A stretch of 11,916 nucleotides of DNA. Source: Calothrix sp. MO_167.B12 (GTDB lineage: Bacteria; Cyanobacteriota; Cyanobacteriia; Cyanobacteriales; Nostocaceae). Shown in pieces: positions 2,168 to 11,916 of the stretch. The translations under genes were made by a program, and so were the position numbers. The notes under the pieces were generated by a model that was not told the origin of the DNA, did not search any database, and worked only from the letters and a program-made list of their open reading frames with translations. Each line of letters begins with the position of its first letter. The first letter of the stretch is position 1. The stretch is taken from assembly GCA_030066045.1 (NCBI GenBank), contig JASJCJ010000244.1, forward strand, positions 1-11,916. The letters run 5' to 3'.

Positions 2168-2752
2168 ATGTTGAATACAAACATAAGTTCTCTAACTAAA
2201 AAAAATTGGATCATCAAATTGGCTTTTTCCCTAGGAATTGCCGGTATCAGTCTCCTGATGAGTTTTCCTGTCTTAGCCAAATACTATCCACGCTACGCTC
2301 TTTTTCAACCCAGTGCCTATACAAGATATCCCTATCGGAGTTCTGAGAGTAATATTGCAAATACCCTTGTTGAAGATAGTAAATTTAGCAATTTTGTTTA
2401 TGAATTGAAAACAGTAGGTCTTCTCAAAGAACTCCAAAAGAAGGGTAATTTCACAGTTTTTGCTCCAACTAATAATGCTTTTAATGCTTTACCTGAAGAT
2501 GTATTTCAACGATATAGCCAAACAGAAAAACGCATCCGAGTGCTAAAGTATCATTTAGTTGCTGGAGAAATTACTCCTAAACAGGTAGATAGCGGCTCAA
2601 TCACAACCTTTGAAGGTAATAAGGTGAAAATAATTGTGAATGACGATAGTTCTGTAAAGATAAATGATGCTAACGGCAAACATCCTTCTACCCTCACGAA
2701 AAATGGTGTGATTATTGAAATTAACAAGGTGCTTCTTTACCCTGGGTTCTAA
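2168..2752 (+). CDS. Fasciclin (FAS1) domain protein with an N-terminal signal/anchor
   Basis: NFTVFAPTNNAFNALPEDV ... LKYHLVAGEI ... TTFEGNKVKI ... NGVIIEINKVLL matches the conserved FAS1 H1/H2 motifs (TVFAPTNxAF...LP; NGVIHxIDxVLLP). N-terminal hydrophobic stretch IIKLAFSLGIAGISLLMSFPVLA. Confidence 0.85.
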   Translation: MLNTNISSLTKKNWIIKLAFSLGIAGISLLMSFPVLAKYYPRYALFQPSAYTRYPYRSSESNIANTLVEDSKFSNFVYELKTVGLLKELQKKGNFTVFAPTNNAFNALPEDVFQRYSQTEKRIRVLKYHLVAGEITPKQVDSGSITTFEGNKVKIIVNDDSSVKINDANGKHPSTLTKNGVIIEINKVLLYPGF

Positions 2753-2928
2753 TCTTGATGTCTATTTTCAAAACCAATTTGACCGGAAGCATCCCCAATG
2801 TTTAAATTTGTAGTGCGGGCCCCAATGTCAAAGGGAGCATTAAACTAGCATCCAAAAGCCAATCACAACAGCCAGACAGCGTAATTGAGCAGGAGATACC
2901 CCAGACGCAGCCCAATTTCTCAGAAGGG

Positions 2929-3114
2929 ATGGACGGAATAATTAGGAAAGCGGCAGAAATCAAAGCACAGGGCTTGGCGATGCCAGATTTGGTAACACTG
3001 CAATTGGCAGGGCAGATGACCTTTGATGATTTACCAGATGACTTAAAAGAGAAAGTTACCGCAGTAAAGGAAGCAGCCAGTACAAAGATGATTGTCCAAC
3101 TTGGGAGGGGGTGA
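2929..3114 (+). CDS. Small hypothetical protein (61 aa) in a locally GC-richer island. Coding status is uncertain
   Basis: ORF MDGIIRKAAEIKAQGLAMPDLVTLQLAGQMTFDDLPDDLKEKVTAVKEAAS... has helical, non-repetitive composition. The frame is open from 2806 with no earlier ATG. The overlapping minus-strand ORF (2802-3140) looks like low-complexity junk. Confidence 0.25.
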   Translation: MDGIIRKAAEIKAQGLAMPDLVTLQLAGQMTFDDLPDDLKEKVTAVKEAASTKMIVQLGRG

Positions 3115-3367
3115 AGAGCACTCAAGATTCTGCCAAACAACAGAAACTAGGGGTTTGGGGTGGAAATCATCAGGAACCTTGGGCTTATAGAAAGGAGAAG
3201 AGGAGTAAGTGATGAAAGCTTTTGTGTACTCTTAGGAGCGAAGTGATCGAAAATTTGCGAGCTACTGAATGTCAATCAAAAAAATACATTGCTACACTGG
3301 AGGGTATAGTTCCGTAATTTTTACTATGACTTTATCGCAATTCAGTGTATAAATTGTATTAAAAAAC

Positions 3368-3570
3368 ATGAGTTTATCTGGTCAGCAGCGTAAAAGACTA
3401 CAAGATTTACAAGACAACATTGCCAAAGACGAAAAATTGCTCAAGGATTTTGAGGATGCATTGCGCTACGAGAAAGACCCTCGTGTCATAGCAGGATATC
3501 GCCGGGAGATTGAGCGACAGAGAGAGTCAATCACTCGCTACGAATCCGAAATGCGAGAACTACAACAAAA
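3368..3570 (+). other. Copy 1 of the shared N-terminal coiled-coil module (domain-level annotation)
   Basis: 3423-3531 is ~95% identical at nucleotide level to 8090-8198. Confidence 0.7.
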
Positions 3571-4255
3571 ATTGACAAGGGAACCATCTACTCAAATGCG
3601 AATGCAGGAGTTGGATGACAATACTAAACCTCTGTATGTTCTCTCAATACCCGTTACGAATCATAAAGAAGAGGAAAATCAAGATACAAAAATTAACTAT
3701 CCAATTGATAGCAAAGACAAGACACAACACTCGTCAAATCCTACAGATACTGAAGTAGAAACATATATCGAAAGAGGTATTGACTATACTCAACTACAAG
3801 AGTATATATCATCAGGTAAATGGAAGAAAGCTGACCAGGAAACAACTAGAGTTATGCTTGAAGTAGCTAACAGGCAAGAAGAAGGTTGGCTACGAAGTAA
3901 GGATATTGAACAGTTATCCTGCTCAGAACTCTGCAGAATAGACCAACTCTGGGTTAAATACAGCAACGGTCGGTTTGGTTTTAGTGTGCAAAGGCATATC
4001 TGGCTTAGCCTTGGTGGTCAACCAGGTAAATTCAATTTCACTGTCTTCTGTAAGTTTGGCAATCGCGTAGGTTGGCGAGTTAACAATGACTGGTTAGAAC
4101 AATACGATCAATTCACCTTTGCCTCTGATGCTCCAAAGGGACATCTCCCATCTTTGAGATTACCAGGTTCGGAGAAGGAAGCTAATTGGTGGGATTTGTG
4201 GCAGAAAAGCTTCAGAGGCTTGTTGCTTCGCATGGAAGATTGCTCATTAAGTTAA
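3368..4255 (+). CDS. Two-domain protein: N-terminal ~60-aa coiled-coil module (shared with the 8048 and 8738 genes), S/T/D-rich linker, and a C-terminal GUN4 (tetrapyrrole-binding) domain
   Basis: C-terminal region WKKADQETTRVMLEVA...SCSELCRIDQLWVKYSNGRFGFSVQRHIWLSLGG...VGWRVNNDW...FASDAPKGHLPSL matches the GUN4 core signature (W..AD..T...L..........PC.DL..ID.LW...S.G.FGFSVQ..IW...GG...W.....W...L.F...AP.GHLP). N-terminal KDEKLLKDFEDALRYEKDPRVIAGYRREIERQRESI is repeated in neighbouring genes. Confidence 0.85.
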   Translation: MSLSGQQRKRLQDLQDNIAKDEKLLKDFEDALRYEKDPRVIAGYRREIERQRESITRYESEMRELQQKLTREPSTQMRMQELDDNTKPLYVLSIPVTNHKEEENQDTKINYPIDSKDKTQHSSNPTDTEVETYIERGIDYTQLQEYISSGKWKKADQETTRVMLEVANRQEEGWLRSKDIEQLSCSELCRIDQLWVKYSNGRFGFSVQRHIWLSLGGQPGKFNFTVFCKFGNRVGWRVNNDWLEQYDQFTFASDAPKGHLPSLRLPGSEKEANWWDLWQKSFRGLLLRMEDCSLS

Positions 4256-4580
4256 GTTTCAATCTCAGTAATAAATAAGCTAATTAAATATAAGCATAGT
4301 CATTATATACATATAACTGATATGTTTCAGGTGCATCTATGGCAAGTTTTACAAGTAAGTTCCGAGGATAGGGATCTGGCGGCAACAAAGCATAAAAACG
4401 TTGAAGTCACCACATAGATAGGATTTCCGCCTTAGATCAATTCGGGTGTTCGGGGAAGTGAAGTTTCAATAAGTATCTTAGGTTCACAAAAAATTGATAG
4501 AAAACACGGAATATTGTGGTTGACATTGGTAGATATAAGTAAGTAGGGATGCAATAAAAATAAATACATAACTAAATCCG

Positions 4581-7529
4581 ATGAAATACTTAACAGTTTA
4601 CTTAAGATTAGCTATATTAATAGGTTGTGGGACAATAAATGCTGCTTTCGCTACAGGAAATACCAAAGCACAAACATTAGTGGCACCACAAGCTTCAACA
4701 GTAGTATTCAGCGAAATTTCAACTACAGCTAAATCACTAAAGATTAACCAACAGAGTCTATCTCATCAAAGTATACAACTAATGGCAATTCCCCAGAGTC
4801 AACCTTATATATTGGCTCAAGCAAGTAAAGGTGGAGAGAATGGAATCATTTGGATAGTTTTGTTAAGTGGAGTTGCGATCGCAGGAATCACGATTGTTTG
4901 CCAGAAAGGGGTGATTGTGATTGGTAAGAACGAAGTTGGCATTGTCTACAAAAAATTTGCCCCTTTTCGCGGTTCTCTCCCTGCCGATAAACTGATTGCC
5001 CTGAATGGAGAAGCGGGTTATCAAGCTGATACTCTTTCATCTGGTTTGCATCTCTGGTATTGGTCCTGGATGTACCAAATTCGTAAGGAACCAGCGATTG
5101 ACATTCCCCATGGGGAAATTGGTCTTGTCATTGCTAAAGATGGGCAACCAATCCCCCGCCAACGAATGTTAGGTAAAGTGATTGATGAGTGTAAAGATTT
5201 TCAAGATGGACATGGGTTTTTAAAGCACGGGGGTCAAAAAGGTAAGCAAATGGCTATCCTGACTACAGGAAGCTACCGTATTAACACTGAATTATTTACT
5301 GTGATTACTGCCGCCAATGCCACTAAGCATGGAATGAAGCCCGAGCAATTGAAAGTATATAAAGTGGAACCTAACAAAGTTGGTATTGTTACTACATATG
5401 ATGGTAAGCCAATTGAAGGTGAAATTGCTGGTTCAATTATTCATGATAATGAAAACTTCGTAAATGGAGAGAAGTTTATTAATGGGGGTGGGCAACAAGG
5501 CTTACAAGAAGAGTTGCTTCCTGTAGGTGAATGGAACTTAAATCCCTGGTTTGTGCAGGTTAAGCAAGTACCAGTGACAGAAATTCCCAATGGCTATGTT
5601 GGAATTATTAAATCCTATGTGGGAAAAACTCCTGAAAAGATTACTGGCACTGCTTCTTATCAAGGTGATTTGGTTGAAGATGGGTACAAAGGGATTTGGA
5701 AAACTCCCCTACGACCTGGCAAGTATGCTATTAACACAGAGGTGCAAAAAATAGAGCAAATACCTACTGATAATATTGTGCTGAAATGGTCAAACCAAAC
5801 CCAGTCTAAATACTATAGACATCTGCCTGCATTGAAGGTGCAAGATCAAGATGGATTTAAATTTGATGTAGAGGTAACACAGTTCATTCGCGTGAATCCC
5901 GAAGATGCCCCCAAGATGCTTTGCAGTGTAGGTTCCATAGATCAGCTAATAGACGAAGTTTTAAAGCCAACGGTCAGCCATTACTTTCTCACTGCTGCCC
6001 AATATTATGAGGCACTGGAATTTCAGAATAATCGTACTGACTTACAAGAAAGCGCGAAACAGGCTATCAAAACAGCCCTCAGTATTCACAATGTTCAAGC
6101 AATTGACACGTTGATTGGTGAAATTGACTTGCCCGATAAGTTAACTGAACATTTGATACAACGCAAGATTGCTCAGCAGGAAAAGGAAAAACTGAAAGTG
6201 GAAACATCATTAGAAGAGGAACGCCAAAATCATATTATAGCCAAGGAGACGGCACAAACAAGGGTTGAGGTAACTAAACATCAACTGAAGAGGGAGATTT
6301 TTGAACTAAATCGTCAAGAGAAACTAAACCAACAAAAAGCACAACAAGAGTTGAAGCGGCTGGCTCGTGAATCTGAAATAGAGGCGCGTCGTAGGCAAGC
6401 AGAAGTAGATGCACTATCTAAGCGACTGATAAGTCAAGTGGATATAGAAGACCTTCGCAAGAGAAAAGAGATAGAAGCAGACTTGAAGCAACTCCTGGGA
6501 GAAGCTGATGTAGATGTACTTGCCAAGACGCTGGAAGTCCTCGGTTCAGAAACATACACAGATATAGAAAAGAGCAAGATATTGGCAGAGGCACTGGGCA
6601 ATATCAAGGTGCCATTGGTACCGCAGACAATAAATTCTTTTGGCACTAGTCCTTATGGATCAATGGATTTCTTACAAGCAAATCCCCTTGGGTTGATGGT
6701 AACGCAGTTATTGCAGCAAGTAAGTCAGCAAAATCCCAACCAGCAACTTAGCAGTTCACCGTCAACACCTGTACTTCCTCAAACCCAGGTTAATTGTCCC
6801 AAGTGTGGATCTAAAAATCCAGAAACCAACAATTTCTGTAATAAATGTGGCACTGGACTAAATCAGCAGCTTTTCACTCACTCTCTATCTGAACCACGTT
6901 GCCCAGTTGTACTGCTTCTCGATACATCCAGTTCTATGTCGAGTGAATGTATCAATCAATTAATTGAAGGGATCGTTACTTTTCAACAGGAGTTAATGCA
7001 AGATACTGTAGCTTCCCGTAGTATTGAAGTAGCTATGATAACATTCGGTGACTCTGCCCAGGTAGTCCAAGACTTTACAATTGTTGAAAGTTTATCACCA
7101 CCTAAGCTTGTAGCAAATGGTATAAGTGCTATGGGTCAGGGGATTGAATTAGCGCTCAACGAGCTGGAGAGTCGCAAAGTTACTTACAAAAACAATGGCA
7201 TTCAGGAGCATCCAGCTTGGATGTTCTTGGTTGCAGGTAGTACTCCTAGCGACAATTGGAAAAATGCAGCAAGAAGTCTCAGAGAAGCTTTTGACAATAG
7301 CAAATTAATTTTCTTTACAGCAGTGGCTGTTCAAGGTGCAAACATGGATATTCTCAATCACATTGCTCCCAGCGATCCACCAGTAATGCTTAATGAATTG
7401 AAGTTTCAGGAATTGTTCCACTGGCTAGCTGATTCTCTAAAGAGAGTTTCCAGTAGCAAAGTAGGTAGCAGTACTAAGCTTCCACCCATCACACAGTGGG
7501 CAAGGATAGATGGGCTTTATCGGCAATAA
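4581..7529 (+). CDS. Large membrane protein: flotillin/YqiK-like SPFH (band 7) domain + long coiled coil + C4 zinc ribbon + C-terminal TerY-like von Willebrand A (vWA) domain. Alternative start ATG at 4782
   Basis: TM helix IIWIVLLSGVAIAGITIV, then an extended SPFH-like region (GIVYKKFAPF...GLHLWYW...IPHGEIGLVIAKDG... through ...SVGSIDQLIDEVLKPTVSHYFLTAAQYYEALEF...). E/R/Q/K-rich heptad coiled coil (LEEERQNHIIAKETAQTRVEV...EIEARRRQAEVDALSKR). CPKCGSKNPETNNFCNKCG zinc ribbon (6795-6851). vWA with MIDAS motif VVLLLDTSSSM...ITFGDSAQVV...GISAMGQGIELA...MFLVAGSTPSD (6900-~7390). Confidence 0.85.
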   Translation: MKYLTVYLRLAILIGCGTINAAFATGNTKAQTLVAPQASTVVFSEISTTAKSLKINQQSLSHQSIQLMAIPQSQPYILAQASKGGENGIIWIVLLSGVAIAGITIVCQKGVIVIGKNEVGIVYKKFAPFRGSLPADKLIALNGEAGYQADTLSSGLHLWYWSWMYQIRKEPAIDIPHGEIGLVIAKDGQPIPRQRMLGKVIDECKDFQDGHGFLKHGGQKGKQMAILTTGSYRINTELFTVITAANATKHGMKPEQLKVYKVEPNKVGIVTTYDGKPIEGEIAGSIIHDNENFVNGEKFINGGGQQGLQEELLPVGEWNLNPWFVQVKQVPVTEIPNGYVGIIKSYVGKTPEKITGTASYQGDLVEDGYKGIWKTPLRPGKYAINTEVQKIEQIPTDNIVLKWSNQTQSKYYRHLPALKVQDQDGFKFDVEVTQFIRVNPEDAPKMLCSVGSIDQLIDEVLKPTVSHYFLTAAQYYEALEFQNNRTDLQESAKQAIKTALSIHNVQAIDTLIGEIDLPDKLTEHLIQRKIAQQEKEKLKVETSLEEERQNHIIAKETAQTRVEVTKHQLKREIFELNRQEKLNQQKAQQELKRLARESEIEARRRQAEVDALSKRLISQVDIEDLRKRKEIEADLKQLLGEADVDVLAKTLEVLGSETYTDIEKSKILAEALGNIKVPLVPQTINSFGTSPYGSMDFLQANPLGLMVTQLLQQVSQQNPNQQLSSSPSTPVLPQTQVNCPKCGSKNPETNNFCNKCGTGLNQQLFTHSLSEPRCPVVLLLDTSSSMSSECINQLIEGIVTFQQELMQDTVASRSIEVAMITFGDSAQVVQDFTIVESLSPPKLVANGISAMGQGIELALNELESRKVTYKNNGIQEHPAWMFLVAGSTPSDNWKNAARSLREAFDNSKLIFFTAVAVQGANMDILNHIAPSDPPVMLNELKFQELFHWLADSLKRVSSSKVGSSTKLPPITQWARIDGLYRQ
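4875..4882. repeat. HIP1 octamer GCGATCGC (cyanobacterial highly iterated palindrome)
   Basis: Exact GCGATCGC. A second exact copy lies at 11788-11795, and a 7/8 copy at 1074-1081. Confidence 0.6.
6900..7390 (+). other. vWA domain (TerY-like, intact MIDAS DxSxS) within the 982-aa protein
   Basis: LLLDTSSSM ... FGDSAQ ... AxGxTxxG-like GISAMGQG ... VAGSTPSD spacing typical of vWA folds, immediately preceded by a zinc ribbon as in TerY-family vWA proteins. Confidence 0.7.
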
Positions 7530-7885
7530 AAGTCATGCCTGTGGAACATTCGTCTGAAAATCGATTTTCCCTATTTTACTCTTTAGCGGCTATTTGCCGC
7601 TCACGAAAATTTGGGTTTAGCGTACAAAAGCAAATCTATTGTGACGTGGGTGGCAAGCCAGGAAAATATAGCTGGGAAACGTTCGTTAGCTTTGCAGAGC
7701 AAGTGGAGTGGAAAGTAGGGGACAAATGGCTGGGCTATGATGAACTGTGTTGGGACTTACGAGGAGTACGTGGACACATACCCCTGTGGGTTACTGGAGG
7801 ACTAGCAGTTGATGCGGATACAAGGGTAGTAGTGTGTGGATGGGCAGTGGGGTTGTTCTCTCGCACAGAGACTTGTAGACTCTAA
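7496..7885 (+). CDS. GUN4-like domain protein, N-terminally truncated relative to a full GUN4 core (stand-alone fragment or remnant). Likely start is ATG 7535, 5 nt after the upstream stop. The GTG at 7496 overlaps the upstream gene
   Basis: RKFGFSVQKQIYCDVGGKPGKYSWETFVSFAEQVEWKVGDKWLGYDELCWDLRGVRGHIPLW aligns with the second half of the GUN4 domain of the 3368 gene (GRFGFSVQRHIWLSLGGQPGKFNF...VGWRVNNDWL...FASDAPKGHLPSL). Confidence 0.6.
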   Translation: MGKDRWALSAIKVMPVEHSSENRFSLFYSLAAICRSRKFGFSVQKQIYCDVGGKPGKYSWETFVSFAEQVEWKVGDKWLGYDELCWDLRGVRGHIPLWVTGGLAVDADTRVVVCGWAVGLFSRTETCRL

Positions 7886-8047
7886 CAGATAACCAATACA
7901 ACCTTTTATAAATATTTGATTTTTTACTAGAAAGTGTCCCCAGGAGGGGGAAGTAAATATCTGAGAAGCGTGATTTTTAAATATCCATAGTCAACTTCAC
8001 CAATCAATTTCACTTTTTCTCTGTCTAGGAAGTAGGAAGCCAGCTCC

Positions 8048-8734
8048 ATGACTAACCAAAGACTAAAAGATTTGGAAGATAGCATTACCAAAGACGAAAA
8101 ATTGCTCAAAGATTTTGAGGATGCATTGCGCTACGAGACAAACCCTCGTGTCATAGCAGGATATCGCCAGGAGATTGAGCGACAGAAAGAGTCAATCGCT
8201 AGTCACAAATCTGAGTATGTTGAACTGAAACAGGAATTAGCTGGGGAACCATCTGCTCAAATACAACTGCAAAAAGTAGAGAACCAATTGCAGCAGATGG
8301 ATAATAAAATAAACATTTTACTTAGTGGTCAGGTTGCTATTTATGCAGATATCAATGATATGCGTCTAGCCCTGTTAAAACGCTACGATGCCTCGGAACG
8401 AACCATAATTGGTGCTATTGCCCAGCAGTTAAATCAAAATCAATTAGTTTTGACACAACAGTTGTTGGATGCAGTAGAAAACAATCAAGTATCAGAACCA
8501 CAAATGCAACAGATGTTGGCAGTATTAGAAGATAAAATTCCTTCTCTACCTCCTAGTCAATTAGCCGCTATAGAGATTATAAAAGACCCCCAGTTTGATG
8601 CTAAACATAAACTAAAAGTAAGTCTACCAATTATACCAATGCTTGTAGAGTATGAAGGTGAATTAGAGTTAGGAAGTGGTTTTAATATCAAGTCTGCTTG
8701 GGAACATTTGGTAGCGAAGTTACGAAGGAAATAA
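8048..8734 (+). CDS. Protein with the shared N-terminal coiled-coil module fused to an uncharacterised all-helical Q/L-rich C-terminal domain
   Basis: N-terminus KDEKLLKDFEDALRYETNPRVIAGYRQEIERQKESI is near-identical to 3368-gene residues 20-55. The C-terminal ~150 aa have no motif I recognise. Confidence 0.75.
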   Translation: MTNQRLKDLEDSITKDEKLLKDFEDALRYETNPRVIAGYRQEIERQKESIASHKSEYVELKQELAGEPSAQIQLQKVENQLQQMDNKINILLSGQVAIYADINDMRLALLKRYDASERTIIGAIAQQLNQNQLVLTQQLLDAVENNQVSEPQMQQMLAVLEDKIPSLPPSQLAAIEIIKDPQFDAKHKLKVSLPIIPMLVEYEGELELGSGFNIKSAWEHLVAKLRRK

Positions 8735-8737
8735 GCT

Positions 8738-8998
8738 ATGTCTGATTGGCTTCAATACCTCCAACAACAAAAGAACAAAGATTTATCTCTATTAAAATAA
8801 TTAGAAGATAAGCTGCGCTATGAAGATAATCCACGTCAAAAACTGAGGTGGAAAGTTAAAATTGAAGAAATCAAGCAGAAAATAAAAAATGAACTCGACG
8901 ACGAGCAAACAGAACAAATCCGTGGCGGCATATTGCTAGGCTTTTTTAGGATAAAGAAAAAATCTGATAAGAAAGTACAGCACTTTGCAGATAAATGA
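8738..8998 (+). pseudogene. Third, diverged copy of the N-terminal module as a short stand-alone gene interrupted by an in-frame TAA (8798-8800). Either a pseudogene or a sequencing/readthrough case
   Basis: ATG at 8738 lies 3 nt after the upstream stop (translational coupling). MSDWLQYLQQQKNKDLSLLK-stop-LEDKLRYEDNPRQKLRWKVKIEEIKQKIKNEL... The module motif (LLK.[FL]ED.LRYE.[DN]PR) spans the stop codon in the same frame. Ends with TGA at 8996-8998. Confidence 0.5.
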
Positions 8999-9060
8999 GG
9001 TACAGACAAATTTTATAAAACTCTTGTGGTACGGGCATCTCTGCCCGTCTAAATGTACCT
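8997..9060. terminator. Nested hairpin between convergent genes (possible bidirectional terminator or small structured RNA)
   Basis: Outer inverted repeat gaggtaca (8997-9004) / tgtacctc (9053-9060). Inner GC-rich hairpin acgggca-tctc-tgcccgt (~9031-9048). No clean U-tract directly after the stem on either strand. Confidence 0.3.
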
Positions 9061-9121
9061 CATAAAGATGAAATATGCTGTAAATTAGTCGGCGTGGAAA
9101 AATCGTTACATTTGCACCTCC

Positions 9122-9343
9122 TCAACTCTCACCAATTCCATGACCCTGCTCAATTTGTGCAAGATACCCCAATTCCACTGGTGTAAAAGCCACTGGTCGC
9201 TCTAAAAGACTCAGTATTTCCACCTCAAACGGGTCTAGGTCACACTGCCTCAGTTTTGATATGCGATAAGCCGGAGGCTTGACGCTTCGCGTATCGCACA
9301 CAGTACGAGGGTGAGCAGTACTCACCCTAAAATTTACCCGCAT
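9122..9343 (-). CDS. Hypothetical 73-aa protein immediately downstream of (co-directional with) the CHAT gene. Coding status uncertain
   Basis: ORF MRVNFRVSTAHPRTVCDTRSVKPPAYRISKLRQCDLDPFEVEILSLLERPVAFTPVELGYLAQIEQGHGIGES. Its start is 13 nt from the CHAT gene stop. Locally GC-richer than the flanks. No recognisable motif. Confidence 0.3.
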   Translation of the reverse strand: MRVNFRVSTAHPRTVCDTRSVKPPAYRISKLRQCDLDPFEVEILSLLERPVAFTPVELGYLAQIEQGHGIGES

Positions 9344-9355
9344 ACAATCTTCTTT

Positions 9356-10400
9356 CTATTGCCAATTTCCCACCAACACATAGGGCGCCCAAAAGTGAGG
9401 GTGATTATACTTTTCATCTGTCAACAGAGTTAGCTGTGCTTGTTGCAATACTTGAGCTTTATTGTTCTGAGTGGTTTTAGCTTCACCTAACTGACGATAA
9501 AATTCACTCATGATTTTAGCAGTACTTTCATCTGCTACAGGCCAAAGTGTCGCTAAGGTGCTACGCGCTCCTGCTCGCACCGCTACCCCAGCTAATCCCA
9601 AAGTAGCTCTTTTGTCTCCACTAGCAGTCTCACAGGCACTGAGAACTAATAATTCAATGGCTCTGGGTTGATTCAGGGTTTTATCTCGCAGTAAATTATC
9701 CAATTGCTTGACATTAATACGTCTATCCCAGGAGAGTATAAAAGTATCCTCTGCTTTAGAACTAAACTTGGCATGGGTAGCTAGATGAACTATGGGAAAA
9801 CGAAAATCACTAATCTCTTGTTGTACAGTGTTAGTGGTAAATTTCTTATTTAGAAGTGGTTGACCAGATAATCCAATTTTCTGGATTTGTTCTAGTTCCG
9901 ATGGTACATTAGGTAATGGGTTAAAACCTTGATGTGCGGGTAAGTCTTTGCGAATTTCACTGAGTCCTGCTGTTAAAGCTTTGAAATTTATTGCTGTTAG
10001 TGGTTTTGGGTTTACCAACTGTAAACCAGGTGTCAAGGCAATGGCATACTTTTCTAATAGATACTGCTTGCCATCGTGCAGAACAGCCATAGGAATATTC
10101 CGCAAGTCTCCATCTAAAACAAAAGCTACAGTCTTGACTTTACTATTTGCCAACTGTTTTTCTACTGGTCTAATTAACCAATTATACAGCTTTTGGTATT
10201 TGGGCAAAAAATATTTCTCTCTACTTATAGGTTTTAAAAGAGAACCCTGTACTTCCCCTACAGTATTTTCCAACTCTGATTGAGAAATTTTAGTACTGTA
10301 AAGCTGGGGAGGTTGATTAGGTAAACTGAGCAGAATTTCTAACCTATCTTTCAAGATAATTGGATAAATAACTGCTGCGTTTTTATCAATTTGATCGATT
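9356..10400 (-). other. CHAT peptidase domain portion of the TPR-CHAT protein (domain-level annotation)
   Basis: His and Cys catalytic motifs as above. AVIYPIIL...VAFVLDGDLRNIPMAVL upstream is typical of CHAT domains. Confidence 0.7.
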
Positions 10401-11916
10401 TGTTGGGGTTTTGCGTCTACACAGGCTTCTCGGAAAAAGTTGTTGATTTCTGCTAATTGCAAAGATTCAATTACATTACGGGCTTGAGTTAGTAATTTAT
10501 GACTTTCTTTCTCTTTTCCTGCGGTTTTTAAGAAACGAGCATATTCTAAATCTAATTGAACCAACTGGCGATATATTGGTTCAACATTATCCCGGAAAGC
10601 AAACTGTACCTCTGGGTTGACTGCGACTAAATCACCTCGTAATGATTGTAGGGAATCATAGGCTTTGGTATAGGCAGCAATAGCATCAGGAATATCGTTT
10701 TGGGCTTTACGTATGCGTCCCAACTGCCAGAAAAACTGGTAGGCGATGTGTGGTGATTCCAAATTTGAAGCTAAACTCAAAGCCTGTTTAGTCAATTGTT
10801 CTGCTTGGGATAAATTCTGCCTGGAACTACTCAGTTCATAGAGTCTACCGCGAAATCCTAATGCATAAGCTTGTGCCGCTTTATCTTCAAAACTCCTAGC
10901 TTGTGCTAATGCTTGGACTAAAATACTGTCAATTTCGTTAAAACTTGGTAGTTGAGAATTACCAGTGAGATTAAAATTTTCGGTTTGAGCTAATTTGACC
11001 AAACTTTGGGCAAAGTTTATTTGTAGGTAAACTGTTGTGCGACTGGGAGGCAAACTATTGAATTGAGACTTGATATCTTGCCATAATTGTGATGCCTCTA
11101 AAGTTTTTTTCCGTTTTAGTAACAAGCTGAGTTGATTCAATTTTGCTTGTTGTCTGGTGGTTGGAGATGTAGACAGCTTAATTACATGACTGTAAGAATC
11201 CAAAGCAGTTTGTTGATAATTCTGCCTTTGACGACGAATGGTTTCGCTTTCAGCCAAGGCTTGGGCTGTGTTACCCAGGGCGAGATAAACAGCAGCCTCT
11301 TGTTGGGGATAATTCAATTTTTGAACTACTTTTAAACTAGTTTCCAAGACCATTTTGGACTGTTCTAATTGACCTACAGATTGCAGTATGTTACCCAAAC
11401 TTGTCAATCCTAATACTACAGTAATAGGGGGAGAACTAGTTTCAATTTGTTGCAGCTTTGTGGTTAATTCTTCTGAAGTTAACCTGCCTAACTCTTGACA
11501 ATTTTCTAATTGTAATTGTGTCTTTAAGGCTTCAAGTACAGTATTACAAGCACGGGGATAAAAACCCAAATCTTGCATTGCTTGTGCTTGATTAATTTTA
11601 CTTTGAGTAACCTGGGAAGAATTTTTAATTTGGCTATAGATTTTCGTAGATTCTTGCCATGTCTGTAAAGCATCTGCCGACTGTCCAATTTCCCGTTGCA
11701 AGTATCCCTGAATATCTAAAGAGTTAGCCAAAATTCTCAACTGTTCTTGCTTCTGGGGTTGGGTTTTGAGTATTTTTAAACTATCTGCGATCGCATTTTT
11801 TGCTGATTCCCACTTGCCTAGTTTTTGATAAGTTAGGGACAGATTACTCAATGCCATTGCTTGGTTTAAGCTATCCTGTTGGGCAGCATAAGCTGCCGCC
11901 GTATCTTTCCATACAA
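9356..11916 (-). CDS. TPR-repeat + C-terminal CHAT (caspase-like HetF-associated with TPRs) protease-domain protein. 5' end (N-terminus) lies beyond the window edge
   Basis: Minus-strand ORF stays open past 11857 to the window edge (…VWKDTAAAYAAQQDSLNQAMALSNLSLTYQKLGKWESAKNAIA). Multiple TPR-like helical repeats. CHAT core near the C-terminus with catalytic dyad context HLATHAKF (rc at ~9763-9790) and LVLSACETASG (rc at ~9609-9637), followed by LGLAGVAVRAGARSTLATLWPV. Confidence 0.85.
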   Translation of the reverse strand, partial: VWKDTAAAYAAQQDSLNQAMALSNLSLTYQKLGKWESAKNAIADSLKILKTQPQKQEQLRILANSLDIQGYLQREIGQSADALQTWQESTKIYSQIKNSSQVTQSKINQAQAMQDLGFYPRACNTVLEALKTQLQLENCQELGRLTSEELTTKLQQIETSSPPITVVLGLTSLGNILQSVGQLEQSKMVLETSLKVVQKLNYPQQEAAVYLALGNTAQALAESETIRRQRQNYQQTALDSYSHVIKLSTSPTTRQQAKLNQLSLLLKRKKTLEASQLWQDIKSQFNSLPPSRTTVYLQINFAQSLVKLAQTENFNLTGNSQLPSFNEIDSILVQALAQARSFEDKAAQAYALGFRGRLYELSSSRQNLSQAEQLTKQALSLASNLESPHIAYQFFWQLGRIRKAQNDIPDAIAAYTKAYDSLQSLRGDLVAVNPEVQFAFRDNVEPIYRQLVQLDLEYARFLKTAGKEKESHKLLTQARNVIESLQLAEINNFFREACVDAKPQQIDQIDKNAAVIYPIILKDRLEILLSLPNQPPQLYSTKISQSELENTVGEVQGSLLKPISREKYFLPKYQKLYNWLIRPVEKQLANSKVKTVAFVLDGDLRNIPMAVLHDGKQYLLEKYAIALTPGLQLVNPKPLTAINFKALTAGLSEIRKDLPAHQGFNPLPNVPSELEQIQKIGLSGQPLLNKKFTTNTVQQEISDFRFPIVHLATHAKFSSKAEDTFILSWDRRINVKQLDNLLRDKTLNQPRAIELLVLSACETASGDKRATLGLAGVAVRAGARSTLATLWPVADESTAKIMSEFYRQLGEAKTTQNNKAQVLQQAQLTLLTDEKYNHPHFWAPYVLVGNWQ
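11788..11795. repeat. HIP1 octamer GCGATCGC
   Basis: Exact GCGATCGC inside the TPR-CHAT gene. Confidence 0.6.

Follow-up and report, generated by a model that had tools for sequence, protein, structure and literature searches.

The window considered here is the stretch of 11,916 nucleotides (nt) at positions 1-11,916 of contig JASJCJ010000244.1 of the cyanobacterium Calothrix sp. MO_167.B12, a metagenome-assembled genome; the source contig is 20 kb long (ENA scaffold_1440). It contains a 6.6-kb accessory island inserted between a fasciclin-domain gene and a TPR-CHAT gene. The island consists of two separable cassettes and is not one system. The first cassette is a gene pair encoding a GUN4 protein and a membrane SPFH protein with a von Willebrand factor A (vWA) domain. 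The second is a pair of genes named here A and B, of which A encodes a constant, all-helical protein of 228 amino acids (aa) and B, dead in the window, encodes a partner with a variable C-terminal part. The cassettes recur together where the GUN4 protein bears the same coiled-coil module as protein A. The features of the island genes are as follows.

3368..4255, plus strand: gene of the 295-aa module-GUN4 protein (Pfam GUN4, 1.1e-44)
3374-3589, plus strand: A-type coiled-coil hairpin module of the 295-aa protein, aa 3-74 (module profiles)
3764-4249, plus strand: GUN4 domain of the 295-aa protein, aa 133-294 (Pfam GUN4)
4581..7529, plus strand: gene of the 982-aa membrane SPFH/flotillin-like protein (Pfam)
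4845-4910, plus strand: transmembrane helix of the 982-aa protein, aa 89-110 (AlphaFold2)
5580-6215, plus strand: Band_7 domain of the 982-aa protein, aa 334-545 (Pfam, 1e-22)
aa 521-617 of the 982-aa protein, plus strand: continuous helix of about 97 aa (AlphaFold2)
6795-6860, plus strand: zinc ribbon of the 982-aa protein, aa 739-760 (Pfam Zn_Ribbon_1, 3e-06)
6906-7373, plus strand: TerY/YegL-like vWA domain of the 982-aa protein, aa 776-931 (Pfam VWA, 1e-07)
6921-6935, plus strand: metal ion-dependent adhesion site (MIDAS) motif DxSxS of the vWA domain (D781, S783, S785)
7535..7885, plus strand: truncated GUN4 open reading frame (ORF) of 116 aa, probably the remnant of a gene (GUN4 profile, positions 70-125 of 141)
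8048..8734, plus strand: gene A, 228-aa all-helical constant protein (AlphaFold2 pLDDT 88.7, no family match)
8048-8254, plus strand: A-type module of gene A, aa 1-69
8264-8731, plus strand: conserved C-terminal domain of gene A, aa 73-228
8738..8998, plus strand: remnant of gene B with the B-type module only, without the variable C-terminal domain (translation)

The 295-aa protein belongs to the GUN4 family. It matches PF05419 with 152.5 bits (cut-off 29.2) at profile positions 3-125 of 141, and its GUN4 domain matches the structures 1Z3X and 1Y6I with E from 1e-21 to 1e-19. The 982-aa protein belongs to the SPFH/Band 7 family, with a Band_7 score of 81.5 bits (cut-off 23.6), a transmembrane anchor and a C-terminal helix. 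Its vWA domain (32.7 bits, cut-off 23.8) has the DxSxS motif and is of the MIDAS type; the residues D781, S783 and S785 are invariant in nine homologues. Both genes had been given these domains, including the zinc ribbon, in an earlier reading of the bare sequence, called here the original prediction, and the Pfam matches bear this out. In the AlphaFold2 model of the 982-aa protein the confident segments are the SPFH region, the long helix and the vWA domain only, the latter with a predicted local distance difference test (pLDDT) score of 85-93. The SPFH plus vWA architecture is common in cyanobacteria, and the homologues are labelled YegL/YqiK in the Joint Genome Institute source. The vWA domain of the window is close to a stand-alone vWA that adjoins PP2C and kinase genes in locus L007 (here and below, such labels denote the loci used for comparison). 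The segment 4581-4880 of the SPFH-vWA ORF encodes a signal-peptide-like start and about 85 poorly conserved residues before the transmembrane helix. The true start codon may be further downstream, as the homologues from Moorena begin at the SPFH region.

The GUN4 and SPFH-vWA genes form a real, conserved pair. A GUN4 gene lies just upstream of the SPFH-vWA gene, on the same strand, in all ten other loci whose context was readable; some of these loci are related, and thus they are counted as about nine lineages (at most 70% identity). The control consisted of 62 SPFH-only paralogues from the same scan for which 1 kb or more of the upstream region was available, and none of them has an adjacent GUN4 gene (10/10 vs. 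0/62, Fisher p = 2e-12). The genes upstream of SPFH-vWA in the ten loci are listed below, where EAD stands for effector-associated domain.

L004 (a 70% orthologue): EAD1-GUN4
L005: caspase-GUN4, preceded by Pepco
L007: EAD8-GUN4, within an EAD8/iSTAND/caspase/trypsin neighbourhood
L008 and L010 (Moorena): A, then B (module-GUN4), then SPFH-vWA
L064 (Microcystis): Pepco and caspase-GUN4, with a vWA-PP2C-kinase-GUN4 triad on the downstream side
L065 (Okeania): GUN4 protein of 316 aa, without the module
L066: EAD1-like domain, module and GUN4, 397 aa
L067: GUN4 protein of 546 aa, without the module
L087: GUN4 protein of 238 aa, without the module

The N-terminus of the GUN4 protein varies among the pair loci and may be EAD1, EAD8, a caspase or the module. 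Gene A is found near the pair only where the GUN4 protein bears the module (3/3, namely the window, L008 and L010, vs. 0/7 without the module, p = 0.008), an association that represents few independent events, L008 and L010 being related. A C-terminal motif '...R.E.C' was considered as a mark of the SPFH-linked GUN4 proteins and rejected, as similar tails occur in unlinked GUN4 paralogues.

The module has a length of about 65 aa. Between the 295-aa and 228-aa proteins the N-terminal copies share 59-69% identity, and the underlying DNA at positions 3393-3549 and 8058-8214 is 89% identical over 157 nt. AlphaFold2 predicts an antiparallel helical hairpin (helices 2-29 and 33-65) with pLDDT of about 90 or more. 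Pfam and NCBIfam scans of the module returned coiled-coil noise and no model, and none of the Pfam EAD models matched it even at E up to 10. A word-indexed search with the module alone gave three matches, and an exhaustive profile search of 1.84 billion proteins was used instead, which yielded 396 cluster representatives at E <= 1e-3. The fusions are combinatorial. Among the top 148 matches, the module co-occurs with TIR, EAD7, DUF4062 and STAND-type ATPases (NACHT, NB-ARC, AAA_16, AAA_22), and also with GUN4, PNP_UDP_1, receiver, FGE-sulfatase (FGS), caspase and CHASE2 domains. The entire 228-aa unit, that is, the module with the C-terminal domain, is present in 77 of the top 150 matches, often as a constant C-terminal part. 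The N-termini fused to the whole unit include STAND ATPases, DUF4062, a nucleotide cyclase, receiver domains and EAD7-containing ATPases.

Gene A has no match in Pfam, NCBIfam or PADLOC, and its product is named 'hypothetical protein' by NCBI. The module and the 228-aa protein, for which there is no Pfam or NCBIfam model, are new relative to these databases. A Foldseek search of the model of A against PDB gave nothing below E = 0.8; the matches with high probability (0.8-0.99) are local hairpins or coiled coils of about 50-85 residues, e.g. in encapsulated ferritins. A genome scan with the A family identified 50 loci, all of them cyanobacterial except one weak match. A is followed by B in 44 loci, including two Moorena-type loci, and the spacing is exactly 3 nt in 37 of the 44. 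The B proteins consist of a divergent copy of the hairpin at the N-terminus and a variable C-terminal part, which may contain PBP/ANF_receptor, HEAT and Clp_N, NACHT and NCH2, NB-ARC and TPR, AAA_16, FGS, TIR, TPR, DUF2326 or GUN4 domains. No third gene has a constant position beside the A-B loci. The module and its constant 228-aa carrier thus occur in dozens of cyanobacterial genomes, and also on conjugative plasmids.

The copies of the module fall into two subfamilies. Those of the 295-aa and 228-aa proteins are both A-type, with 98 bits vs. about 53 bits (51 for the 295-aa protein) against the B-type profile. As a protein, the module of the GUN4 protein in the window is no closer to that of its own A (69% identity) than to that of A in L011 (66%); only as DNA does the own pair stand out (89%). 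In L031 (Stigonema), a module-GUN4 gene is situated directly upstream of A and the two modules are 83% identical, whereas they are only 41-45% identical to the modules of the window. The module score with the own partner is 89.6 vs. 83.6 for partners from other loci, a weak but significant effect that was reached in 4 of 5000 permutations; it is small and could reflect lineage composition.

In its arrangement the module recalls the principle described for EADs, where a small helical domain occurs once on a constant component and again on variable effectors of nearby genes, the copies of adjacent genes being most alike (PMC7159879). The architecture agrees with this principle, the similarity of adjacent copies only in part. 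The described set comprises EAD1-EAD11 and bDLDs of the VMAP/iSTAND/GAP1 conflict systems (Kaur, Burroughs, Iyer, Aravind, eLife 2020 and 2021). The hairpin is likewise small, non-enzymatic and mostly alpha-helical, and it is carried by a constant and by variable proteins, often of adjacent genes, as in the A-B pairs of 44 loci. The fusion partners overlap as well (TIR, caspase, STAND, FGS, GUN4, PNPase, receiver), and the module stands between EAD1 and GUN4 in L066 and next to EAD7 in other proteins. On the other hand, it matches none of the Pfam EAD models, and its copies on A and B form two subfamilies, so that the pairing may be heterotypic. Furthermore, the constant partner is a 228-aa helical protein and not a VMAP, iSTAND, Ubl or GAP1 core, and no MoxR, vWA-VMAP or GTPase core is obligatorily linked to the module. 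Judging from its sequence and its fusions, the module seems to behave like an effector-associated adaptor, being a member of no described EAD family. The EACC1-caspase two-gene system (System 4, Kaur et al. 2020) also combines a small constant 5' gene with a 3' gene that has a variable region. However, EACC1 has a single transmembrane segment and a constant caspase partner, whereas A is soluble and all-helical, B has no constant enzyme, and the link is the hairpin.

Several loci contain unusual variants of the A-B cassette. On a conjugative plasmid of Tolypothrix sp. PCC 7601 (NZ_CP064884.1; L146, positions 4721-9576), an AAA_21/AAA_15 ATPase gene is followed by A, by B with TPR at a distance of 3 nt, and by a gene encoding a vWA protein of 752 aa. 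A-B is here associated with vWA for a second time and independently. A few loci in all have such an ATPase upstream and a vWA protein downstream, and L024, L025 and L029 are grouped with L146; RefSeq annotates A and B of this plasmid as hypothetical proteins. In Calothrix sp. MO_192.B10 (L011, 6839-9366), A is followed by two tandem B genes, each encoding a B-type module and an FGS domain. According to the literature, diversity-generating retroelements often target FGS domains. In L032 (7199-7624) and L037 (6512-6922), A is longer (286-317 aa) and there is no B; a gene that looks PIN/VapC-like by eye overlaps the stop codon by 4 nt.

The position of the island was established by comparison with related genomes. 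Its flanks are given by the following features.

2168..2752, plus strand: fasciclin-domain gene, left flank marker, outside the system (Pfam Fasciclin, 2e-25)
2753..9355, no strand: inserted accessory island of 6.6 kb (fasciclin-CHAT neighbours in related genomes)
9356..11916, minus strand: TPR-CHAT gene, right flank marker, outside the system (Pfam CHAT, 2.5e-57)

Orthologues of the CHAT gene with 59-67% identity were found in Chlorogloeopsis, Mastigocladopsis and Chroococcidiopsis (L061-L063). In all three, a convergent fasciclin gene lies 81-165 nt past the CHAT stop codon (the stop codons are 165, 125 and 81 nt apart in L061, L062 and L063, respectively), and these fasciclins are 56-61% identical to that of the window. 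A module, GUN4, SPFH or A gene is absent from these loci. In the window, the same distance is 6603 nt. Since the two genes are direct convergent neighbours in all three relatives, and a two-partner secretion (TPS) gene precedes CHAT in the source contig, the segment 2753-9355 represents an accessory insertion between the fasciclin gene and a ShlB-TPS-CHAT operon, with CHAT as a bystander.

The copy of the cassettes in the window is partly decayed: B is a pseudogene, EAD1 has been lost and one half of a GUN4 ORF is left. The reading frame at 8738 is MSDWLQYLQQQKNKDLSLLK-stop-LEDKLRYEDNPR..., with an in-frame TAA at codon 21 (8798-8800); there is no usable restart or downstream start in 8738-8998, and the public record has no gene at this place. 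The remnant reaches 57 bits with the B-type profile vs. 42 bits with the A-type profile and follows A at the same distance of 3 nt as in 37 of the 44 pairs. With the A-type module on the 228-aa protein and the B-type score at 8738, the region 8048-8998 represents an intact A and a dead B. The 116-aa ORF at 7535-7885 passes the GUN4 cut-off (53 bits) yet it is a fragment, about 35% identical to every other GUN4 domain examined, and nothing comparable follows SPFH-vWA in any of the other loci. According to the original prediction, three genes shared a module of about 60 aa, one of them consisting of the module and nothing else, and a second GUN4 domain was translationally coupled to the SPFH-vWA gene. 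The module is real in the 295-aa and 228-aa proteins and both short spacings (7529/7535 and 8734/8738) are as described, but the third copy of the module is a pseudogene remnant and the second GUN4 is a remnant of half a domain.

The history of the GUN4 gene is seen from L066, whose sequence is 92.5% identical to positions 3392-6782 of the window and whose GUN4 protein contains an EAD1-like domain, the module and GUN4. Two structures mark possible or actual breaks.

3392..3405, plus strand: junction of a deletion of about 293 nt that removed the EAD1-like domain from the GUN4 gene (comparison with L066)
8976..9082, no strand: imperfect palindrome of 107 nt at the end of the gene B remnant (inverted repeat, RNA fold z = -4.55)

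Positions 3339-3405 and 3392-6782 of the window correspond to 4455-4520 and 4813-8205 of L066, with an overlap of 14 nt. Replacement of EAD1 by the module was therefore rejected: L066 has EAD1 together with the module and GUN4, and the window lost EAD1 by deletion. The L066 copy is adjacent to hisIE and not to fasciclin or CHAT, and thus the GUN4/SPFH-vWA pair has moved. The upstream neighbours of the pair in L066 (3-3266) are hisIE and an ORF of 1087 aa, cut at the contig start, which by eye looks like a TIR protein with WD40-type repeats and would be a further conflict-type gene. The palindrome has an inner GC-rich hairpin ACGGGCA-tctc-TGCCCGT at 9031-9048 and may serve as a terminator or mark a breakpoint. 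A repeated mobile element was rejected, the palindrome being absent from the other loci compared.

The reading that we prefer, by a modest degree of belief, is that two mobile cassettes of a conflict or apoptosis-like class, resembling antiviral or cell-suicide modules, have been joined in one island. The domain grammar expected for such systems by the original prediction fits overall, and GUN4 and Band7 had already been listed in this setting: Kaur et al. describe GUN4 as a cyanobacteria-specific domain in the effector position and Band7-like domains on vWA proteins (PMC7159879, PMC8195603). A single system including CHAT is the part of that expectation that did not hold. Descriptions of the GUN4/SPFH-vWA pair or of the A-B cassette were not found in the literature searched.

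In the proposed mechanism, the SPFH part would form a membrane-anchored oligomeric assembly similar to flotillin or HflK, displaying many C-terminal MIDAS vWA domains. This platform is suggested by the transmembrane helix, the SPFH core, the helix of about 97 residues, the confident vWA domain with an intact MIDAS and general knowledge of SPFH proteins. The platform would engage the GUN4 protein, whose GUN4 domain may be a sensor of porphyrin or photosynthetic status or else a photosensitising effector. The variable N-terminus (EAD1, EAD8, caspase or coiled-coil module) would plug the GUN4 protein into other components. The hairpins of A and B may pair, e.g. as a four-helix bundle, and couple the variable partner B, whose gene is probably translationally coupled to gene A, to the constant partner A, which can in turn be joined to effectors in one protein. 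Through its module the GUN4 protein would dock to A; since this module is A-type, the GUN4 protein should be recruited to A. If the pairing is functional, pigment or photosynthetic status, or photodynamic killing, would be linked to programmed-death or immune circuitry.

The genomic contexts of the pair and the cassette include Tn7-like genes, ParAB, TraG, a relaxase, an integrase and conjugative plasmids, as well as iSTAND/EAD8 neighbours and a TerY-like vWA with a kinase and PP2C. These mobile, iSTAND/EAD8 and vWA-kinase-PP2C contexts favour a role in conflicts over a housekeeping role.

Several considerations weigh against this reading. No relative of A was found on viral contigs. PADLOC recognises in the window only the GUN4 part of the PD-T4-6 profile and a generic TPR; the former match covers profile positions 297-431 of 450 and no kinase, so that the protein does not belong to PD-T4-6, and it is not evidence of defence, as the PD-T4-6 models are kinase-based and reported on core kinases. 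The window has no NTPase or peptidase core, so that the switch of a regulated conflict system would have to lie elsewhere or be lacking. The full-length AlphaFold2 model of SPFH-vWA is poor (mean pLDDT 56) and was not used for the fold search, and thus the picture of a cage with vWA domains rests on knowledge of other SPFH proteins. The association of A with module-bearing pairs goes back to few events, and the effect for own partners, as said above, is small. The promoter and terminator scan was uninformative, giving fewer sites than in shuffled sequence. Finally, since gene B is dead and EAD1 has been deleted, this copy may be inactive.

The latter observation leads to the alternative that the island is decayed junk, that is, fragments left by recombination between paralogous cassettes, with nothing functional as a system here. 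In addition to the pseudogene B, the half GUN4 domain and the deletion of EAD1, the 157-nt repeat with 89% identity marks a recent recombination, and the palindrome lies at a break. However, the three long ORFs of 295, 982 and 228 aa have remained intact, the first two match L066 with 92.5% identity and no disruption, and the DNA of gene A is 86% identical to the copy in L011. This suggests that the genes are maintained, and we regard decayed junk as unlikely, while giving it more weight than the other alternatives.

Another possibility, rather less probable, is that the GUN4/SPFH-vWA pair has a housekeeping function as a scaffold of the thylakoid or plasma membrane for trafficking or quality control of tetrapyrroles or chlorophyll. 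The organisation of membrane complexes is a general role of SPFH proteins, conservation of the pair is strict, and the GUN4 domain closely matches structures of bona fide Gun4. The combination of a porphyrin-binding GUN4 domain with a MIDAS vWA domain is reminiscent of Gun4 and Mg-chelatase (ChlH-ChlI-ChlD), where, according to PMC6604950, the vWA-type domain of ChlD links the chelatase subunits. In contrast to the latter, there are no chelatase subunits here, GUN4 is fused to adaptors or caspases, and the context is mobile. Against a housekeeping function, the distribution of the pair is sporadic and its location differs between close relatives, the window and L066 (92.5% identity, next to hisIE). 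Moreover, it occurs beside Tn7-like, conjugative, integrase and plasmid genes, and within iSTAND/EAD8 and TerY-like vWA-kinase-PP2C neighbourhoods; the N-termini of its GUN4 proteins are caspases or EAD adaptors.

A more specific version of the preferred conflict reading is doubtful. It holds that the GUN4/SPFH-vWA pair would be a light-dependent device for abortive infection or suicide and the A-B hairpin a new, widespread family of heterotypic adaptors. The vWA-decorated flotillin-like assembly would capture the GUN4 protein, and a trigger would be relayed via the coiled-coil or EAD adaptors. GUN4 would then load free protoporphyrin and produce singlet oxygen at the membrane, and the A-B hairpin would wire NACHT, NB-ARC, FGS and PBP sensors to a constant executioner in filamentous cyanobacteria. 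The complex of GUN4 with protoporphyrin IX is reported as a generator of singlet oxygen (Tarahi Tabrizi et al. 2016, cited in PMC8967248).

The pair also resembles several described systems. Like the VMAP ternary systems (Kaur et al. 2020), it brings together vWA, Band7/SPFH and GUN4 in conflict neighbourhoods, and the pair of L007 is part of an iSTAND/EAD8 locus with iSTAND, AAA and EAD8 genes. However, the order of domains is SPFH-zinc ribbon-vWA, the vWA is TerY/YegL-like, and a MoxR/AAA+, VMAP or iSTAND domain was found neither in the window nor elsewhere on the 20-kb source contig. The TerY-P triad, said to have been described by Anantharaman, Iyer and Aravind in 2012, reportedly consists of a TerY-type vWA, a PP2C phosphatase and a Ser/Thr kinase. 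The vWA of the window-type proteins is close to stand-alone vWAs near PP2C and kinase genes in L007, L064 and L065, the kinase of L064 being fused to GUN4, but the window has no kinase or PP2C and its vWA is fused to a flotillin-like protein. Lacking MoxR, VMAP, iSTAND, kinase and PP2C, the window belongs neither to the VMAP/iSTAND ternary systems nor to the TerY-P triad. With the flotillin-like SPFH proteins (YqiK, FloT, HflK/C) the 982-aa protein shares an N-terminal membrane anchor, the SPFH core and a long coiled-coil helix. It differs from them in an additional beta-rich region of about 220 aa before Band_7, in the C-terminal zinc ribbon and vWA, and in that SPFH-vWA is always preceded by the GUN4 gene, which is found by none of the 62 SPFH-only paralogues.

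In L008 (478-19085) and L009, the trio of A, B (GUN4) and SPFH-vWA is situated beside Tn7-like TnsA, TnsB, TniB and TniQ/TnsD with ParA/ParB. On the other side of the trio in L008 there are a TraG-like coupling protein and a set of genes containing a DO-GTPase, and the same set lies downstream of the trio in Moorena producens (L010). In Microcystis aeruginosa (L064, 13952-17332), a TerY-like vWA, PP2C and a Ser/Thr kinase-GUN4, followed by an integrase, lie downstream of the pair; a similar set of vWA and kinase (with or without PP2C) is present in L007 and L065.

It is very unlikely that A and B are the middle component and the effector of an ABC-three-component (Lamassu-like) system, with the ATPase gene absent from the window. 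In L146 and L051 the gene immediately before A does encode an AAA_21/AAA_15 ABC-type ATPase, homologues of which occur at other positions in L029 and L024, and one B protein contains DUF2326. The 210-aa class of B has a weak match to CTD10 of the ABC-three-component systems, under the Pfam cut-off (21 vs. 28 bits). However, of about 50 loci only a handful have the ATPase, none of the genes upstream recurs constantly, the ATPases are 257-362 aa long without long coiled-coil arms, PADLOC finds no Lamassu component in A, and the window, having no ATPase, does not belong to this class.

The TPR-CHAT call at 9356-11916 in the original prediction was correct, as the Pfam match confirms. The ORF runs past the end of the window and encodes 928 aa in the source contig, where a gene of a TPS protein (1692 aa) on the same strand and a further ORF of 1326 aa are located upstream. 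The gene thus belongs to the TPS-CHAT type of operons; ShlB was not seen within the 20-kb source contig. The order is ShlB-TPS-CHAT in L062 and L063 and three TPS genes followed by CHAT in L061, CHAT closing the array in all three. The synteny of ShlB/POTRA, TPS, TPR-CHAT and the convergent fasciclin gene is retained from Chroococcidiopsis to Nostocales, and two-partner secretion may thus be the setting in which the CHAT protein works. Among 55 A-B or SPFH-vWA loci, an iterated CHAT profile of moderate sensitivity found CHAT only in L011 and L007. The CHAT gene of L011 is a 40%-identical paralogue; it, too, has a TPS gene in front of it, but its relative orientation is opposite. The comparison of gene neighbourhoods, which had been proposed as a check, thus shows that the GUN4/SPFH-vWA and A-B pairs recur and separates them from CHAT, a chance neighbour with an operon of its own.

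The hypothesis of a single multi-component system, with the TPR-CHAT protease acting as effector for the adaptor, GUN4 and SPFH-vWA genes, is therefore largely refuted and hardly credible. In its favour, the CHAT gene of the window is a convergent neighbour of the other genes, the sister metagenome-assembled genome (L011) has a paralogous TPS-CHAT pair immediately before A-B, and a CHAT gene is found within the large EAD8/iSTAND neighbourhood of L007. Against it, the orthologues of CHAT in 3/3 loci belong to ShlB-TPS-CHAT operons with fasciclin and without the other genes, CHAT is missing from 53 of the 55 loci, the CHAT of L011 is distant and differently oriented, the domain scan detected neither the module nor an EAD in the CHAT protein of the window, and the adjacency arose only through insertion of the island.

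The remaining features of the window are minor. A gene encoding a HEAT-repeat protein is situated at 421-1524 (ORF and domain scan). Rfam and tRNA scans gave no matches. A 73-aa ORF at 9122-9343 on the minus strand, inside the insert and 13 nt after the CHAT stop codon, is a gene in the public record, with no match in Pfam or NCBIfam. The left part of the island contains a 61-aa ORF at 2929-3114, which is a gene in the public record and belongs to no family. Another frame within 2753-3367 ends with ...QKLGVWGGNHQEPWAYRKEKRSK, which we take to resemble the C-terminal end of thermonuclease-type proteins, and may be another gene remnant.

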